A stretch of DNA of 64,000 nt, taken from NCBI GenBank assembly GCA_020353515.1, contig CP070695.1:3193532-3257531 (forward strand). The letters are read 5' to 3'. The DNA is from Candidatus Heimdallarchaeota archaeon (GTDB taxonomy: Archaea; Asgardarchaeota; Heimdallarchaeia; Hodarchaeales; Hodarchaeaceae). Positions 50,405 through 63,280 of the stretch are shown here, piece after piece. The notes under the pieces were generated by a model that saw only the letters and a list, made by a program, of their open reading frames with translations, was not told where the DNA came from and did no database searches. The translations under genes were made by a program, and so were the position numbers. Within the stretch, counting starts at the first letter, position 1. Each line of letters opens with the position of its first letter.

Positions 50405-51187
50405 ATGAAGATTATTTTATCTGGGAAAAATTTAACGAGATTTCCTGATATTGATCGTCCTGAATCTCTGGAACGATTGATATTGAGTAATAATGAATTG
50501 AATTCTCTACCTGAAACCATAAACAATTTTTTAAATTTAAAAACACTAAAATTGGATGTTAACCGCTTAACTACATTACCAGAATCACTAGGAAGATTAA
50601 CACGGCTTGAAATACTTGTTTTAAGTTATAATTACTTATCCTCACTCCCTAAGACACTAGGGACTCTAAAAAATCTAAGAATTCTAGATTTAGAGCATAA
50701 TCATTTAGACTCCCTGCCAGAAACGTTATTGGAAAATCTTTCACATCTAAGAGAATTAAATTTATCTGATAATAATTTAGAGTGTCTACCTAAAAGTATT
50801 GGAAGGCTTTCTAATCTTATGAAATTAAGTGTACGAGACAATCAATTAAGATCTCTCCCTATTTCTATTGGGACTCTTGAAAATTTGTGGTTCTTGGATC
50901 TCTATCACAATGATTTGACAACGCTTCCTGATTCATTAGGAAACCTCAAATCGCTACGAGTTCTTTACCTGAAGTCCAATAGCTTATTTTCTCTTCCAAA
51001 CACCATAGGTAACCTTAAAAATCTTCAAGAAATCGTTCTACGTGATAACAATCTTAAATCCCTTCCCAACACGCTTACAAATCTCACTAACCTCCAATAT
51101 CTAGATGTTGGATTAAACAAACTAGATAAGGTTTCCAAAAAATTAATTGAAAAGCTGTGGAATCAAGGAGTTAGAATAAACTTGTGA
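50405..51187 (+). CDS. Leucine-rich repeat protein (23-aa LRRs)
   Basis: About 10 repeats LxxLxLxxNxLxxLPxxIGxL. Confidence 0.95.
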   Translation: MKIILSGKNLTRFPDIDRPESLERLILSNNELNSLPETINNFLNLKTLKLDVNRLTTLPESLGRLTRLEILVLSYNYLSSLPKTLGTLKNLRILDLEHNHLDSLPETLLENLSHLRELNLSDNNLECLPKSIGRLSNLMKLSVRDNQLRSLPISIGTLENLWFLDLYHNDLTTLPDSLGNLKSLRVLYLKSNSLFSLPNTIGNLKNLQEIVLRDNNLKSLPNTLTNLTNLQYLDVGLNKLDKVSKKLIEKLWNQGVRINL

Positions 51188-54989: not shown

Positions 54990-57383
54990 TTGATGCAACT
55001 GACCCATAAGAGAATAGCATTCCCTTTTTCCGCTATCGTTGCGATGGATAAATTAAAATTAGCAACAATAGTAAACGCAATTAATCCTAAAATTGGAGGA
55101 GTGCTAATTCAAGGAGCAAAGGGTTCAGGAAAAACCACAGTTGCTCGTGGATTAACTGATATTCTTCCAGAATTGGAAGTAGTAAAAGGGTGTTCATTCA
55201 ATTGCAACCCTCATGATCTTTCAAATATGTGTGAAACATGTGGTGAAAAATATCGTAAAGGAGAGCAATTTGAAATAGAAGAGAGGGAGATGGCAGTCGT
55301 AGATCTTCCACTGGGAGCAACAGAGGATCGAGTAGTTGGAAGTCTCGATGTAGAAAAAGCAATAAAGCATGGAATAGGAGCATTAGAACCAGGGATCCTT
55401 GCAGAAGCAAACCAGAATATTCTATATGTTGATGAAGTCAATTTGCTACCTGACCATGTAGCTGACGATTTATTAGATGCAGCTGCAACAGGATGGAATG
55501 TGGTTGAGCGTGAAGGAATTTCAGTTCGCCATCCCTCCCGATTCGTATTCATAGGAACCATGAATCCTGAAGAGGGACAACTTAGACCACAACTCTTAGA
55601 TCGCTTCCCTTTGTCTGTAAGTGTTGAAAGAATAATGACTGTTGAAGACAGAATGGAAGTAGTTAAGAGAACCATTGAGTTTGAAGCGAATCCTGAACGT
55701 TTCATCGAAATCTATAAAGAAAGTCAAATAGAATTACGAAATCGAATAATTGCTGCAAGAAAGTTGTTGTCAAAAGTTGAGTTACCTGAAAAGCTCCTTG
55801 AAGTCATTTGCCTTACCTGCTTAGATCTTCAGGTCGATGGGATGAGACCCGATATTGTCATAAGCAAAACAGCACAAACATTAGCAGCATTTGAAAACAG
55901 AAGTGTTGTTACCCCAGATGACATCTTGATTGCTTCAGAACTTACATTAAAACACAGAACTAGAGAGGGAGGTTTTCAGGATCCTGCAACACCAGAAGAA
56001 ATAGCGAAATTATTTGTAGCAAAAGTAAAGCAGGTAAAATACGTCGAACAAATTGAATCTTCAGATACTGACCAAAAAAAAAAGCGGGAAAAACCTAAAG
56101 GCCGAGTCATGATTTGGGCTCCACAAGAAACAACAGAAAAAGAAGAAGATTTGGCTCATAGGAAGAGTAGTAAGACTCGGGCAAGGATTTTTCAATTTTT
56201 TAGCAGGATCGGTCCAAGCTTCGCACTTGGTAAGAGACTGAGGAAAAGTCCTGAAGACTCCCCCGTCATGAATGGTGCTATAAAACAAGCAGAAAATATT
56301 AAAGGTGAGATTTCTGAAGGAGTAGAACGGGGCAAGTTTAAGGGGATTCCCTCTGTCACTTATGCAGTTAAGTCTTCTGATATGAGAAAAGGTAATTCTT
56401 TAATCTCAAGGATAAAAGATAGTATCCTTTCACCATTTAAACCTCCTGATTTTAAAAAAACTCGATTTAAAGGAGTTAGTAGTACTGCTGGAAAACGAGC
56501 GGAGTCGATTACAACTCTCCATCGCGGCCGACCTTGGGGTTGGAAGTTTCCGAAGGGAAAACCATCAGATATTCATTTACCAGCAACAATTAGAGCTGCA
56601 GCTAGACATCAGAATCATCGAGTCCCGTCTCTAGGAACTTCGATTAGTATATCCTTAGAGGATGTCCGAGAAAAGTTAAGAGTATACAAGGCTCCTATGA
56701 CGCTAATCTTTGTCATAGATCTTAGTGGATCTATGATGTTCAATATTGAAGCTAGTAAAGAAGCCCTCCTACGGTTGCATAGAGATGCCTACCGTTATAG
56801 AGATAAAGTAGGTATTGTAGCTCTCAAAGATACAAGAGCTGTTGTTGTTCAACATCCTATCACAAACTTAGGTGTGGTAGCAAACAAGCTATTCGGATTA
56901 AAAATCAGTGGGTTCACTCCTTTGGCAGCGGGTATGTTAAAAGCGCTGGACGTCTTAAAGGAAACTAGACGTCGGGATAGAGCAACTATTCCAGTCATTG
57001 TTATCATTACGGATGGAAACACAAATGTCCCGCTTTATAGAAGTCTAGAGACTGGAGAACTTCGTGATTTCAAAGAGCTAGGAATCGCATTAAGGGAATT
57101 TGAAGATTTAGCCGTTAAGGATGTGGTCTCTGTTTCTAAAGCCATTGAAAGAGAAGGGATCCATACAGTGATTGTTAATACAAACCCTCATTATATTGGA
57201 CGTGAAACTTATGGTTTTGCAGTAACGAAAATCATTACCTCTATAACCAAGGGAAGTCATCACCAAATTAGCAGACTTAGTGACGGCGAAGAGCTTGTCG
57301 AAGACATCTTTGAAGGTATTAGTGAAGACCAAAGAAAAATTTCTGCAGGAGTCCCTTTATCACAACTCAATGTATGGGATTGA
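54990..57383 (+). CDS. Mg/Co-chelatase D-type subunit (AAA+ plus VWA)
   Basis: [52 protein letters not shown]. Confidence 0.92.
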
Positions 57384-57480: not shown

Positions 57481-60400
57481 TTAGTAAAATGAAATGTCGA
57501 AATACGATTGTAATTCTCTAACCAATGTGAAGGCATGTTTTATTGCCTCAGTAGTCTTGATACATGAGAGTTCTATATATAATTCTCCTATAATTTTCGA
57601 TTCGGCCTTAATTAATGCTGTACCTAAAGAATTCAATCCATTAGCGATCTCTGTTCGCAATTTGATCCCTCTAATTATTTTATCTTCCCCCTTTAGAGTT
57701 ATATCCTTCCACGGATTGTCCCATATTGACTCCCGTGGATCACCATCGATTTTCAACTCAATGAATAGCTTTTCTGAGATTTCTGGTTTTTTCAAGCAAC
57801 CACTCATTATGATCTGATTTTGGTCTAGTTTCACAAGGATTTCTTTAATTGATCCTGAATATGGAACTAATTGTGCATTAAGACCAGTATCAGCTTTTTT
57901 AAAAATCACGTCTTTTACTCGATACTGAATGGATGAAAATAATTTTTCATCATCATCAACTGGTTTTATGGGTGGGGGAATTTCTATGGCTTTCTTTACT
58001 GGTTGAAGGTCTGCTGTAATAACTGGTTCAGCTGGTTCCTCCACTAAAGGCTTTTCTGGTACCTTTGGTTCTAGCTTTAGGAGTTTAGGTGGAAGAGTTG
58101 GTTCTATTTCAGAGGGTTCTTCTCTAACAACAGGCTTTATTTTTGTAGGTTCTTTTATTGGTGGTTCGGGTTTCAATGGTTCTACTAAAATTACTGGTTC
58201 CTTGATTGGGGTCTTTATATGAACAGTAGGTTCTATTTCCAGAGACTCTTTAACAGCAGGTTCTATCATCAGGGGTTCTTCTTGAATAAGGGGCTCTATA
58301 ATTCTAGCTAGTTGCGTATCGGGAGCTGGGGTCGGTTTCTTCTTTGTTGAGTAACGCCATGCAAAAAAACCAAAAGAAAGGATTATTATTATTCCACTGA
58401 TAAGGAGTAGTAAAAACAATACAATGGATAATAAATCTGGGATAAAAGAGTCCGATGGAGGAATTATATTCTTAACGCTAAATGTTTGGTCTGATATATC
58501 TTCTGTTGTTAAGCCTCCAGAACTGGTTGCTACTACTTTGATCAAATAGGTAGTTCCATCAGGAAGGCTGGTGGTGTTCCAATCATAACGAGTAGTGGTT
58601 AACCTTGAAGCTATTGGATCCCAACTACTCCCGTTATCAGAGGAATAGTATAGAGTATAAGTGACATTGTGACCCAACGAATCTGTTGAAGCTGACCATT
58701 GAATAGTGATGGTTTCATTGAGGATTTCCCCACCATTGGGAGATAAAACACTTACTTGTGTAATGTAATGTATAGAAAATGTACCATCAGAGACGTCTTC
58801 AGCTGTTAACTCCTCTGAACATGTTGCTACAACATGTATCGTTAAAGATGTCCCCTCAGTAATTGTCGAAGTATCCCAACTGTATTGAGTTGTAGTTAAT
58901 CCTGAACCTAGCAAATTCCAAGTATTTCCATTATTGGTTGAATAGAATACGGTATAGGTGACATCATGACCTAATCCATCATTAGATGCTGACCATTGAA
59001 CTGAGATGGTTCCATTTAGAGTTTCCCCTCCATTAGGAAATATGATAGTCGGTGTGGAAAGAGTATTATGAATTGAAATTATATCATCAGAAATATCTTC
59101 AGCTATTAATCCTTCTGAACAGATTGCAACAACCTTAATCAAGTATGTTGACCCATCAGCGACAGAGACAGTGTTCCAACTATAATTCGTTGTATTTAAT
59201 CCTGATACTAAAGTCTCCCAAGTGTCCCCATTATCCGCAGAAATGTTTATTGAATAGACCACCTTATGTCCTAACGAATCTATTACTGGTAACCACTGAA
59301 TTCCTTCAGTCCAAGTGTAGATTTCACCTCCATTGGGAACCACGACAGTAGGCTCTGTAAGTATGTCTACTAAAGCAGTTGGATACTGGGAAGTCAAAGG
59401 ATATGAGTCTTGGCCTCCTCCATCCATGTGATAGGGATTATCAACTATATTATCAACATCAATGTCAGGATTTGTCCATTCACTCCAGTAGTTGAAAGCA
59501 AATACATTCATACTCCCCTCAATTAATGAGCCCTCATTTAATGCTTGAGGACTATTTGGGGGATAATTCCCTTCACCGTTTCCAATGAAATTGTTCCAAC
59601 TAATAGTATTATAACTTGTAAAACTACAATCGAGACCATAATAATAATTATCTGCTAGATTGTTACTTGAAATGTTATTATAATTTGCAGAAGTACCTAA
59701 ATTAATTCCCCTCCCATCATTATCAAAAATATTATTGCCAGTCAAGATGTTGTTTAGTCCATCAAGGTGGATACCGTTCATAGTATTGTTATATATGGTA
59801 TTTCTTTCAATTACATTAGAATCAGACGTTCCATCTCCGAGTTCAATCCTAATTCCGTCTCCAGGAGTCTTAAATACAGTATTATTTCTGATAATGCACT
59901 CTGAGGAACCCCGAATATTGATCCCACAATCAACCCCGTTTTCATAAACGGTATTATTGGAAATAACAGCGTGAATAGAACTTTCGATATAGATTCCTAA
60001 TCCATTACATCCATGAACAGTATTGTTGGTAATCACGTTATAATCTGAATAGTAATTAGTGATTCCTTCAAAATTATTAAATATAAAATTATTTGTAACA
60101 GAATTATTCAATGAGTTTTCTACATAGATCCCAGGGCCTCCTCCTGCATCTTGAACACTATTATTCGTTATTTCATTATTATTCCCATAGATCCATATTC
60201 CATTAACATTATCAAAATAATCGTTAGAACTGATGATGTTATTATTACCATTAATAATAAATGGGAACTCAATGTTATAGAAAGTATTATTGAAAATAGT
60301 ATTATTATTAGATTCAGTGAGAAGAATCCCCCATCGCTCATTATTCCCCCCAATAGAATTATGAATTGTGTTATTGACAATATAACCAGAGCTCACATTC

Positions 60401-60894
60401 CGAAGAGAGATTCCTGTTATACCATTAACAAAAAAGGAGTCCCTAATCTGGAAGCACAGATCAGTGTTTAAAATTTCTACTAGAAAATCTGAACTAGTTA
60501 TTTGGAATCCAGAAATAATAATTGGATTACTCTCCATTCCATTTCCAGACCAACCCTCGGTAATAGATTGATTGATAAAATCGGTGTTGCCATCTATAAA
60601 AATAGGATCATGGTCTATAAAGGTGGAAGAAGTAAATTTTAGTTCTTTTTTTGAAACTATTTCATGTATGTTTCCAGTGTTAATAAAAGAGTGATTATCT
60701 CCGTTAATTTCAATAAAACGAGACGTTATACCTCTGAGATCTAGAAATCCAAAATTTTCAGAACCTCTCAAAGGGAGGATCAGTATTAAACAACAAGTCA
60801 AAATTCCAATAAGAATGATTGTGTTTATTACGAACTTCCTCCATGCTAATCTCGTCATCTTATTACTGAAAAGTGTAATATGACTTTTATTCAT
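57481..60894 (-). CDS. Receptor-like single-pass protein: CASH beta-helix, 3 Ig-like repeats, TM, Pro/Glu linker, unrecognised cytoplasmic domain
   Basis: N-terminal signal/TM, beta-helix repeats, three PNGGE repeats, TM LLSIVLFLLLLISGIIIILSFGFFAW, EP-rich linker, C-terminal domain shared with the next gene. Confidence 0.88.
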   Translation of the reverse strand: MNKSHITLFSNKMTRLAWRKFVINTIILIGILTCCLILILPLRGSENFGFLDLRGITSRFIEINGDNHSFINTGNIHEIVSKKELKFTSSTFIDHDPIFIDGNTDFINQSITEGWSGNGMESNPIIISGFQITSSDFLVEILNTDLCFQIRDSFFVNGITGISLRNVSSGYIVNNTIHNSIGGNNERWGILLTESNNNTIFNNTFYNIEFPFIINGNNNIISSNDYFDNVNGIWIYGNNNEITNNSVQDAGGGPGIYVENSLNNSVTNNFIFNNFEGITNYYSDYNVITNNTVHGCNGLGIYIESSIHAVISNNTVYENGVDCGINIRGSSECIIRNNTVFKTPGDGIRIELGDGTSDSNVIERNTIYNNTMNGIHLDGLNNILTGNNIFDNDGRGINLGTSANYNNISSNNLADNYYYGLDCSFTSYNTISWNNFIGNGEGNYPPNSPQALNEGSLIEGSMNVFAFNYWSEWTNPDIDVDNIVDNPYHMDGGGQDSYPLTSQYPTALVDILTEPTVVVPNGGEIYTWTEGIQWLPVIDSLGHKVVYSINISADNGDTWETLVSGLNTTNYSWNTVSVADGSTYLIKVVAICSEGLIAEDISDDIISIHNTLSTPTIIFPNGGETLNGTISVQWSASNDGLGHDVTYTVFYSTNNGNTWNLLGSGLTTTQYSWDTSTITEGTSLTIHVVATCSEELTAEDVSDGTFSIHYITQVSVLSPNGGEILNETITIQWSASTDSLGHNVTYTLYYSSDNGSSWDPIASRLTTTRYDWNTTSLPDGTTYLIKVVATSSGGLTTEDISDQTFSVKNIIPPSDSFIPDLLSIVLFLLLLISGIIIILSFGFFAWRYSTKKKPTPAPDTQLARIIEPLIQEEPLMIEPAVKESLEIEPTVHIKTPIKEPVILVEPLKPEPPIKEPTKIKPVVREEPSEIEPTLPPKLLKLEPKVPEKPLVEEPAEPVITADLQPVKKAIEIPPPIKPVDDDEKLFSSIQYRVKDVIFKKADTGLNAQLVPYSGSIKEILVKLDQNQIIMSGCLKKPEISEKLFIELKIDGDPRESIWDNPWKDITLKGEDKIIRGIKLRTEIANGLNSLGTALIKAESKIIGELYIELSCIKTTEAIKHAFTLVRELQSYFDISFY
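58475..59350 (-). repeat. Three tandem ~100-aa Ig/FN3-like coding repeats
   Basis: PNGGE...QW...D.LGH.V.Y...S.DNG..W...L.TT.Y.W.T...G..Y.I.VVA, three times. Confidence 0.85.
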
Positions 60895-60922
60895 TTCTGA
60901 ACCTCCTTTGGTTCATAATGGA

Positions 60923-62212
60923 TTAATAAAATGAAATCTCGAAGAATAATTGTAGGTCTTTGATTAATGAGTAAGCAATACTCACAGCTTCCTCCATCTC
61001 GATACAGGTCAACTGAATACAGATTTCTCCTTTGGTTTGTGACTCCACCTTGACTTCTGCTTTTCCTAAAGAAACTAACTGATTTGCGATTCCACTATGC
61101 ATTTTGATTCCGTTTAGGACTCTTTCTCCTCCACTTAGATTAATATTTCGCCAGGGATCCTCCCATGATGGTTGTTTCGGTTCCCCCTCTGTTTTTAACT
61201 CAAGGTTCACGAAAGGAAGATTTGATTTTCTCAAACAGCCTTCCAATAGTATTTGATTCTGATTAAAAGTAACCTTGATCTCATTTATTGATCCTGAAAA
61301 TGGAATAATACGTACAACTTGCCTATTAATTTCCTGTTCAAAGATCAACTCTTTGACCTGATATTGAATGGATGAGAATAATGATTTTATTTCTTTATCC
61401 AAAAGTTCATTTTTGGGATCAGTTTCAGGTATGATCTCTTGGGAAAAGTCTGTATCTGCTATTTCTAATGTAGATGGTTCTTGGTCAGGAATTTCTGGAA
61501 TATTTTTCACAACAGAGAGATTTTGGAGTTCGATAGCTTTTTGAGGTGTTTCTTCTGATAATTCCACTTTATTCATTATTGGAGATATAAATTCTTCCTT
61601 AAAATTAACTTCTTTTTCAATTTTTTTAGGAGATAAGGTGTCTAATACTGTTTCCTCATCAGATTCATATGAAATATGTGCTTCAGGTTCTAATAATTCA
61701 GGTATTATCGCTATGGAATTCAGATACTCTTGTAGACTATTTAAATGATCATAAAACATTTCATTCGAAATATTCCTTTCTAGGAATCTTTTTTTCTGGT
61801 TGAAATACCATATTTTCTTCTGGTTCAATAATAAGTCTTGAGAGGCACCAGGCTGTTTGGCTTGGTCAGCAAAGAGTTTATCGAAGCTTTCAATAGCTTG
61901 CTCTAATGATCTACGGTCTTTGGTAAACTCAACATCTATATTTTGTTGTGATTGGGGAAGTGGTTTTGTTTCTTCTACTTGTTTTTGACCACATTTTGGA
62001 CAATAGCTGGCTTCATGCTTGATCCTTGCATTACAGGAAGAACAGCGTTTCATGCTATTTTTTAAAACATGATTCCACGAGGATGATTCCCATTGGCGTG
62101 GGAGTGTGCTATCACATTTTCGACATTTCGAGAAAACCCGATTGTTTTTTTCTCCACAATATCTACATACAACAAATGGTTCCATAATCAGCACCATTTC
62201 TTTAGAAATCAA
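60923..62212 (-). CDS. Soluble zinc-ribbon protein with the same C-terminal domain as 57481..60894
   Basis: CRYC, CRKC, CSSC, CPKC, helical middle, acidic linker, LFSSIQY...ISFY domain. No TM. Confidence 0.85.
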   Translation of the reverse strand: MISKEMVLIMEPFVVCRYCGEKNNRVFSKCRKCDSTLPRQWESSSWNHVLKNSMKRCSSCNARIKHEASYCPKCGQKQVEETKPLPQSQQNIDVEFTKDRRSLEQAIESFDKLFADQAKQPGASQDLLLNQKKIWYFNQKKRFLERNISNEMFYDHLNSLQEYLNSIAIIPELLEPEAHISYESDEETVLDTLSPKKIEKEVNFKEEFISPIMNKVELSEETPQKAIELQNLSVVKNIPEIPDQEPSTLEIADTDFSQEIIPETDPKNELLDKEIKSLFSSIQYQVKELIFEQEINRQVVRIIPFSGSINEIKVTFNQNQILLEGCLRKSNLPFVNLELKTEGEPKQPSWEDPWRNINLSGGERVLNGIKMHSGIANQLVSLGKAEVKVESQTKGEICIQLTCIEMEEAVSIAYSLIKDLQLFFEISFY

Positions 62213-62587: not shown

Positions 62588-63280
62588 TTAAGATTTTTTC
62601 TTTTTTCTCTTTTTCACCTTAGCTTTCTTGTTAATCAAGCCTTCTTTTTCAAAGATAGCAGTTATACTACTCATTCTATCATCGAGTCTCTTTTGAATGA
62701 CATGTGAAAAGCCCTCTAACTCTTGAGCTCCCATCATTCCTAGTTCACGAGAATATTCATAATTTAATTTTTCATAATCTTGCTGTCGACTGGTCATGTA
62801 CTTTTCAAGAATTTCTTGCATTGATCCTTCTTTCCCAATGAATCCACGTAATAATCCCATTAACCCTAAACGATCCAAGGTGTCCGCATCATAAACCACT
62901 TTTTCTTCTGGTGTTACAGGGGGAATACTCGATGTAGGTGTATGACGCACGACCACACGACAAATTCTCTCACTCAAAGAATTTTCTATTTCTAATCCTT
63001 CTAGGAATTCTTCTGCAATGCTACCCCCGAATAAACCATGAAATCCTGCAAAGTCATTAGTTGTTTTACCTATATCGTGTAATAATGAACCCGCTATTAC
63101 GATAAAAGGGTCGATTGGATCGTCAATATTTTTACTGATTTGAATTGCAGTGCGTGTAACCATAAATACATGAGAATAATCATGAGAGTCGCTTTCGGCA
63201 TGACATCGTCTCACAAATTCTTGGATTCTTAATAAAATCTCCTGTTCTTTCTCTGTTAGTGCTCTAGTAAACATTTTCAT
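62588..63280 (-). CDS. HD-domain phosphohydrolase
   Basis: HDYSHV, LLHDIGK, HG, VVRH, YDADTLDRLG. Confidence 0.93.
   Translation of the reverse strand: MKMFTRALTEKEQEILLRIQEFVRRCHAESDSHDYSHVFMVTRTAIQISKNIDDPIDPFIVIAGSLLHDIGKTTNDFAGFHGLFGGSIAEEFLEGLEIENSLSERICRVVVRHTPTSSIPPVTPEEKVVYDADTLDRLGLMGLLRGFIGKEGSMQEILEKYMTSRQQDYEKLNYEYSRELGMMGAQELEGFSHVIQKRLDDRMSSITAIFEKEGLINKKAKVKKRKKKKS

Follow-up and report, generated by a model that had tools for sequence, protein, structure and literature searches.

A C-terminal domain of predicted CCDC47/TtfA-type fold on surface, membrane and soluble proteins of Hodarchaeales, and its possible role as a docking tag

Two adjacent genes of a Hodarchaeales archaeon end in the same domain, one encoding a surface protein and the other a soluble protein, and the locus therefore raises the question of what this domain is and whether it joins the two proteins. 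The genes, here termed A and B, lie in a stretch of 64,000 nucleotides (the window) from Candidatus Heimdallarchaeota archaeon (assembly GCA_020353515.1, contig CP070695.1, positions 3,193,532 to 3,257,531). Few archaea are as closely related to eukaryotes as the Hodarchaeales, and the domain bears on the way in which their many surface proteins may be linked to the cytoplasm. We propose, with a confidence that we would call evenly balanced, that it is a portable non-enzymatic docking tag that would gather the proteins bearing it at one common partner on the inner face of the membrane.

Gene A (57481..60894, minus strand) is an open reading frame (ORF) of 1137 aa with a GGAGG motif 7 nt upstream of its ATG, and gene B (60923..62212, minus strand) encodes 429 aa from a TTG or 420 aa from an ATG at 62185. 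An earlier reading of the letters without database searches (the sequence-only reading) had placed the two ORFs on the same strand 28 bp apart, with terminal domains starting at LFSSIQY at 57942 and 61381, all of which we confirmed, and BLASTP reproduced its identity of about 45% (69/153 identical; 74% positives, E 4e-52) and the ISFY with which both proteins finish. Its layout of gene A is likewise borne out; in full, the order is a probable signal or anchor helix, a beta-helix recognized by Pfam, three repeats of FN3 type, a transmembrane helix, a Pro/Glu linker and the C-terminal CCDC47/TtfA-fold domain. In gene B the four CxxC knuckles and the acidic linker stand as described, but the account had passed over a helical domain of ~85 aa between them. 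The parts of the two genes are as follows.

60775..60831, minus: A, N-terminal hydrophobic helix, residues 22-40, a probable signal peptide or anchor (hydropathy; cleavage inferred)
59380..60618, minus: A, right-handed beta-helix, ~residues 93-505, limits approximate (PF13229, Beta_helix, E 8.5e-36; PF05048, NosD, E 2.3e-25)
58465..59361, minus: A, three FN3/Ig-type repeats, ~residues 512-810 (PF00041 E 6e-6; self-repeats, paralogue)
58357..58434, minus: A, transmembrane helix, ~residues 821-846, followed by KKK (hydropathy)
57943..58350, minus: A, Pro/Glu/Lys-rich linker of 136-139 aa, 21% Pro and 16% Glu (composition)
57481..57942, minus: A, C-terminal CCDC47/TtfA-fold domain, 153 aa plus stop, LFSSIQY from residue 985 (BLASTP, fold comparison)
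61988..62167, minus: B, four CxxC knuckles forming two zinc-ribbon pairs (Pfam DZR, PF12773, E 3.3e-6)
61673..61939, minus: B, helical domain of ~85 aa without known family (sequence comparison)
61382..61672, minus: B, acidic linker, net charge ~-15 (composition)
60923..61381, minus: B, C-terminal CCDC47/TtfA-fold domain, 152 aa plus stop, LFSSIQY from residue 278; the copy used for modelling (predicted structure, fold comparison)

Because basic residues come after its transmembrane helix, the tail of gene A is probably cytoplasmic. A Pfam search of A and B left the shared C-terminal domain without a match.

Predicted fold and the ancestral two-domain protein

The domain, modelled from 63 homologues with a predicted local distance difference test score (pLDDT) of 92 and a predicted template-modelling score (pTM) of 0.87, is predicted to consist of eight strands and four helices in the order helix, six strands, two helices, two strands and a long final helix. 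When the model was compared by VIA-align with 48,161 solved chains, in a search whose repeat run agreed, the best match was mammalian CCDC47 (Z 12.6, root-mean-square deviation (rmsd) 3.5, 151 residues aligned) and the second best was fungal CCDC47 (Z 11.2), with TtfA at Z 10.7 (rmsd 3.9, 139 aligned). The next tier, type III secretion system (T3SS) chaperones and YbjN, lies at Z 7-8 with 110-120 residues aligned, near the library background. Foldseek gave a probability of 1.0 and a template-modelling score (TM-score) of 0.62 with zero matches at E<=0.001, and the fold assignment is carried by VIA-align and by domain 1 of the two-domain protein described below. The titles of the solved chains (PDB 7TUT/7TM3 chain 4, 6W6L chain 7 and 9I78 chain 4) name the translocon, and we take the chains to be CCDC47, which in the eukaryotic multipass translocon is a subunit of the PAT complex. 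For 9I78 the range that aligns is consistent with the segment 76-370 given for CCDC47 (PMC12572126).

Sequence comparison recovers none of this: Pfam and PDB sequence searches with the 63 homologues gave nothing significant, PF07946 matched neither the domain, nor the homologues, nor any protein of the genome, and the shared domain has no DUF3137 or DUF3156 match over the curated Pfam cut-off. The domain that the sequence-only reading called unrecognised is nevertheless recognizable by structure comparison as of CCDC47/TtfA/DUF3137 type, and the likeness to TIR and death-fold modules that it drew does not extend to the fold. A death fold, which is a six-helix bundle, is contradicted by the eight strands and four helices of a model at pLDDT 92, and the order of elements departs from the alternating beta-alpha, flavodoxin-like topology of a TIR fold; that TIR and death-fold chains are missing among the matches listed excludes nothing by itself. 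As to the known enzyme or housekeeping fold that the same reading had thought might emerge, the fold is a known one, but of a docking or helper type and not that of an enzyme. No invariant polar or catalytic residue occurs in the 63 sequences, in which the conserved positions are W, I, Y, G and L; W80/W84, the LFSSIQY segment and residues of the final helix are conserved. In both best matches, CCDC47 and TtfA, the matching part is the cytoplasmic domain of a helper protein with one membrane pass that attaches to other machinery of the membrane. Since no catalytic residue is invariant and the fold relatives are docking proteins and chaperones, the domain has the look of an interaction module that acts in the cytoplasm without enzymatic activity.

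Five copies of the domain are found in this genome (G000): those of A and B, one on a second beta-helix surface protein (G000:3791186-3793765), a truncated orphan (at 1950716), and one in a protein of 446 aa (G000:4596179) in which a transmembrane helix, a domain 1 and a linker precede the shared domain as domain 2. The transmembrane helix and domain 1 of this protein match those of CCDC47 and its globular domain at Z 14.3 (rmsd 4.2, 200 aligned; Foldseek E 1.3e-4). A profile-profile comparison of domains 1 and 2 gave a probability of 2%, and the kinship of the two domains, judged from the models, appears to be structural only. Of the 21 further genomes in the genus, 15 have the two-domain protein, and it also turns up in a few, scattered genomes from other Asgard families and classes. 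The domain itself is a small family, detected in 19-23 of 400 Asgard genomes and 55 of 1.84 billion representatives, and its homologues bear Hodarchaeales names; the genome searches scored some of the candidates per genome and many genomes are incomplete, and hence copy counts are lower bounds. In G000 the ancestral gene (L003:4180-6400; G000:C1:4596179-4602308) is found just upstream of a small GTPase gene that belongs to a cluster of three, and this neighborhood is kept across the genus with genes inserted between in some genomes. A second, divergent paralogue of the two-domain protein occurs in G059, G071, G074 and G076 (L049, L070, L073 and L074), with matches also in G060 and G067; it was not found in G000.

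The globular domain in CCDC47 makes contact with the ribosome beside Sec61, at eL6 and rRNA H25 (PMC7505659), and the protein ends in a conserved basic coiled-coil latch at the ribosome exit tunnel (PMC7505659, PMC12572126). The shared domain resembles it in its globular cytosolic fold, as predicted on the Asgard side, and in ancestral domain 1 alone the transmembrane helix also runs straight into the globular domain. In contrast, the domain of A lies 139 aa from its transmembrane helix and B has no such helix, identities are 5-10%, the Asgard proteins have neither lumenal region nor latch, and a single Asgard genome can hold many copies of the domain, attached to proteins of various kinds. 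The mycobacterial protein TtfA (MSMEG_0736/Rv0383c; PDB 6T84) is an accessory factor of MmpL3, and its conserved region is required for MmpL3 binding (PMC6593404). It has the same fold (Z 10.7-11.9) and, like ancestral domain 1, a cytoplasmic domain on a single N-terminal transmembrane helix, but it is one domain with a dispensable disordered tail that serves mycolate export, whereas the archaeal domain is duplicated in the ancestral protein or placed at the far end of a tether in A and B. The class I T3SS chaperones and YbjN proteins (SycN-YscB, SycH, AmyR, and MTH 3CXJ) may share the fold class, at a Z of 7-8 that is close to background, and are known to pair as homo- or heterodimers and to bind peptides in extended form; they are smaller and soluble, and without the extra strands common to the domain, CCDC47 and TtfA. 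Among Atlas models the structural neighbors are bacterial clusters at TM-scores of 0.59-0.70 that involve the mostly bacterial, uncharacterised DUF3137 (PF11335) and DUF3156 (PF11354), one cluster being 27% DUF3156, and 6 of 24 domain-1 sequences have weak, sub-threshold DUF3137 matches (best E 8e-4). The predicted fold thus occurs in bacteria too and is not specific to Asgards and eukaryotes, which is why the Asgard protein is not yet a eukaryotic signature protein. PAT components are stated to be lacking in prokaryotes (PMC9630114), and an Asgard membrane protein with the transmembrane-plus-globular architecture of CCDC47, without its latch, bears on that statement; our literature search found no paper naming CCDC47 together with Asgard archaea or with TtfA. 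The new elements are a two-domain Asgard family to which the shared domain belongs and the release of its second domain as a promiscuous C-terminal tag.

Spread of the domain onto other proteins

All 99 non-redundant copies of the domain end within 7 residues of the protein C-terminus. Their carriers comprise 51 proteins of the ancestral type, 25 other membrane proteins (beta-helix surface proteins, DUF3592 proteins and proteins with one to three transmembrane helices), 16 soluble proteins, every one with zinc ribbons, and 7 fragments. A tree sets the ancestral copies apart from a star-like, rapidly radiated group of mobile copies (support 91/93), which are mostly acidic (median isoelectric point (pI) 5.5) and in which two cysteines that are absent from the ancestral copies are frequent (69% and 90%). 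The ratio of nonsynonymous to synonymous substitution rates (dN/dS) of the domain is ~0.1-0.3, which indicates purifying selection. At a locus before an SDR gene the domain gene stays while its N-terminus varies among four different N-termini or a remnant: the front end is a beta-helix in G000 and G076, two transmembrane helices in G074, a 1218-aa version in a JGI contig and a 41-codon remnant in G066, and there is nothing in G075. The orphan copy (L001:4579-5241; G000:C1:1950578-1951240) is 5'-truncated to linker and domain in an open frame with no clear start, and the same locus in JGI 3300041085 (L086) holds a complete surface protein of 715 aa. Because N-termini change at a fixed locus, the orphan locus exists in full and truncated forms, and dN/dS is low, the domain appears to move as a linker-plus-domain cassette that is retained by selection. 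In one Hodarchaeales subclade the second domain thus became detached and was attached to other proteins, always at C-termini.

Several observations adjoin this picture. The interval G000:C1:2850210-2850278 may hold a 23-codon remnant of the last helix of the domain (E 0.07-0.4), and similar 3' remnants occur in G060, G063, G066 and G068. Soluble zinc-ribbon carriers also exist outside the Hodarchaeales mobile clade (L045:5457-7319, P0050-P0052), which suggests, with weak tree support, a second independent detachment. Huge multipass proteins, mutually unrelated and with ~37, 18+ and 28+ transmembrane helices, adjoin domain-bearing surface genes in L050:8836-15923 and L082:1-7454, where a RING/DUF4145 protein is also found next to such genes.

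Adjacency of A and B and the role of the domain

Orthologues of B lie behind an HD-domain gene in five other genomes (G067, G074, G076, SRR26538809 and GCA_048886865), and at five of the six orthologous B loci A is absent, the position behind or before B being taken variably by a GNAT gene, a transposase or A. The DNA of the B domain is 81% identical to the nearest orthologue for which DNA is available, versus 62% to A; the transmembrane helix, linker and domain of A are 51% identical to surface protein P0002 over 324 aa, and its ectodomain is 70% identical at the nucleotide level to the paralogue G000:3800345-3803272. Because B occurs without A at orthologous loci and the parts of A match other surface proteins, the simplest account is a single gain of A, as a whole gene behind B in this lineage. 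Integration of A by a crossover inside the shared domain was rejected, as sliding nucleotide identity shows no switch, and a local tandem duplication of the B domain is disfavored by the identities and by the receptor-type linker of A, but the approximately unbiased (AU) test does not reject it (p 0.14).

The search for related loci gave no match in genome contigs and two loci in a metagenome scan. On contig L084, at the SDR locus, a gene for a zinc ribbon, transmembrane helix and domain overlaps one for a beta-helix, transmembrane helix and domain, forming a second independent tandem. One further tandem among ~25 genes has p ~0.02-0.03 under random placement, a figure that ignores the clustering of surface genes, and the second tandem implies that the A-B adjacency is probably not pure chance. 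Ectodomain, transmembrane helix, zinc ribbon and domain are also fused in single chains (P0012, P0015), and G000, G074 and G076 each have carriers of both kinds, the membrane-bound and the soluble with zinc ribbons. A 636-aa beta-helix gene stands behind the soluble carrier P0013, and the two may form a third tandem. The co-occurrence of the two forms, for which the sequence-only reading had suggested a check, is thus seen in three genomes, in the second tandem and in the fusions, but not at the five B loci where A is missing. Its receptor-adaptor logic holds in so far as the module looks to be of an interaction type, and fails in that the pairing is not conserved, B has no recognisable output domain, and the domain is also borne by membrane proteins without an ectodomain. 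Judged from gene order, A and B do not constitute a conserved receptor-adaptor pair.

In the docking-tag proposal, the second domain of an Asgard inner-membrane protein (transmembrane helix, domain 1, linker and domain 2) would have been copied in one Hodarchaeales subclade as a cassette of linker and domain, which was joined to many proteins at their C-termini. The predicted fold, the origin, the shuffling, the terminal position, the selection and the lineage-specific adjacency of A and B are observed or computed, and from them we infer a tag that is held on the cytoplasmic side by a long flexible tether and draws in surface protein A, soluble protein B and small membrane proteins to one partner. 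Such recruitment would most simply explain why many unrelated proteins have kept the module at their ends, in each case on a flexible tether in the cytoplasm. The simplest candidate for the shared partner would be the ancestral two-domain protein or the binding partner of that protein's second domain; A and B would then both serve one assembly as its clients, and would not form a dedicated receptor and adaptor. Some points weigh on the other side. The step to a common hub draws on relatives in fold whose identity is 6-9%, and no function follows from a shared fold; since the mobile copies depart from the ancestral ones at several conserved positions, their partners may differ; the second tandem would fit direct binding equally well; and AU tests leave A and B as sisters unrejected (p 0.14), with p 0.10 for the second tandem. 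The domain is small, soluble, well modelled and expressible, and it singles out a definite group of proteins at the surface, in the membrane and in soluble form.

Direct binding is the substance of the homotypic receptor-adaptor alternative, in which the domain of A binds that of B, so that a ligand or clustering at the beta-helix would recruit B, and the zinc ribbons and helical domain would relay the signal; we regard this as possible though unlikely. Dimeric chaperones such as SycN-YscB are among the fold neighbors, dimerisation being established for the T3SS-chaperone fold class, and the ancestral protein carries two such domains in tandem. Both independent tandems, that of the window and that of L084, place the zinc-ribbon carrier before the beta-helix carrier, the fusions P0012 and P0015 and the three genomes with soluble and membrane forms point the same way, and the same kind of ectodomain bears a winged-helix tail in five other genes here, making signalling plausible. 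The arrangement of ectodomain, transmembrane helix, linker and domain beside a soluble protein with the same terminal domain does recall TIR-TIR and death-fold systems, but the fold is unrelated to either, B has no A beside it at five of its six orthologous loci and lacks a recognisable effector domain, the upstream gene of the L084 tandem itself encodes a membrane protein, and for CCDC47 and TtfA, the two nearest matches by structure, the binding described is to other proteins. The fuller version of this idea, in which a homotypic CCDC47/TtfA-fold module of Hodarchaeales wires variable beta-helix receptors to zinc-ribbon adaptors and the parent protein is an archaeal relative of CCDC47, we consider somewhat more doubtful still. 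A complex prediction for the two domains (score 0.01, mark 0.32) was used neither for nor against binding.

Other alternatives fare less well. It is improbable, in our judgement, that the domain contacts the ribosome or SecY in CCDC47-like biogenesis, with the two-domain protein as archaeal forerunner of the PAT-complex subunit and the mobile copies tying their carriers to the translocon or aiding assembly of large multipass neighbors. CCDC47 is the best structural match for both domains, transmembrane helix included for domain 1, its globular domain touches eL6 and rRNA H25 (PMC7505659), and domain genes lie near very large multipass proteins (~18-37 transmembrane helices) at three unrelated loci. 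Yet all copies stop within 7 residues of the domain with no basic coiled-coil latch, the mobile copies are mostly acidic, the domain was found in only 19-23 of 400 Asgard genomes, and similar folds occur in bacteria, with weak DUF3137 matches; moreover, the genome has no PF07946 match and no Asterix (PF03669) match over the cut-off (best E 0.56), although a remote small hydrophobic homologue could escape this search. We think it similarly improbable that A and B have no functional link, the domain being kept for each protein separately (for stability, retention or turnover) and the adjacency being a by-product of insertion at a variable locus. The varying occupant of the position beside B, the 38 beta-helix/FN3 paralogues in the genome and the frequency of truncated domain relics would fit, but the domain is on just 2 of the 38 paralogues, one of which nevertheless adjoins B, a second tandem exists, and the domain appears to be under purifying selection. 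An enzyme or a module for small ligands or lipids is very improbable: START/Bet v 1 folds stand low in the match lists (Z 4-6) and the two frequent cysteines of mobile copies would suit such a role, but the START-type matches span part of the model at background Z, the cysteines are missing from ancestral copies, and the 63 sequences share no invariant polar or catalytic residue.

Neighboring genes and other surface-protein tails

Two further genes of the window frame the pair.

62588..63280, minus: HD-domain gene, the conserved upstream neighbor of B (Pfam, synteny); a marker only, with no functional link to B implied
54990..57383, plus: Mg-chelatase-like AAA+/VWA gene, convergent (Pfam, synteny)

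The Mg-chelatase-like gene directly follows B in G076 and SRR26538809, which marks the insertion site of A; its AAA+ and VWA parts form one ORF of 797 aa here and two ORFs (~370 and 424 aa) in G074, G076 and SRR26538809. A DDE transposase lies between the HD gene and B on the P0060 contig (SRR26538809), consistent with a variable locus, and a leucine-rich-repeat protein of 260 aa (window 50405-51187) is kept near the locus in G067, G074 and GCA_048886865. A promoter and terminator scan, using a bacterial consensus, stayed at chance level. A 5.5-kb contig from a sediment run, which may be the source of the genome, spans the end of the chelatase gene, A and the B domain with zero differences, and identical pieces of gene A are present in two further samples.

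In the same genome the ~85-aa helical domain of B recurs in two further proteins, C-terminally in one of 913 aa with six transmembrane helices and N-terminally in one of 204 aa. With three copies in this genome and a presence in 7 of the 22 genomes of the genus, it appears to be a mobile module in its own right; an Atlas search with it gave no usable match. A conserved operon (L002:7751-14349; G000:C1:3793750-3800348) encodes a protein with 21-24 transmembrane helices and one with 6-7 such helices, repeats and this helical domain, both without a Pfam match, and it usually precedes a domain-bearing gene.

The surface proteins of the genome have several kinds of tail: most have none, some carry the shared domain, and five beta-helix/FN3 proteins with a transmembrane helix end in a conserved cytoplasmic tail of ~170 aa in which Pfam recognizes a winged helix of MarR type (E 1e-4 to 3e-5). 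The latter (G000:C1:1398789-1401263, 2854710-2856533, 3044674-3045774, 3931690-3933426 and 4382712-4384925; L089, L090) are candidate membrane-anchored one-component regulators.

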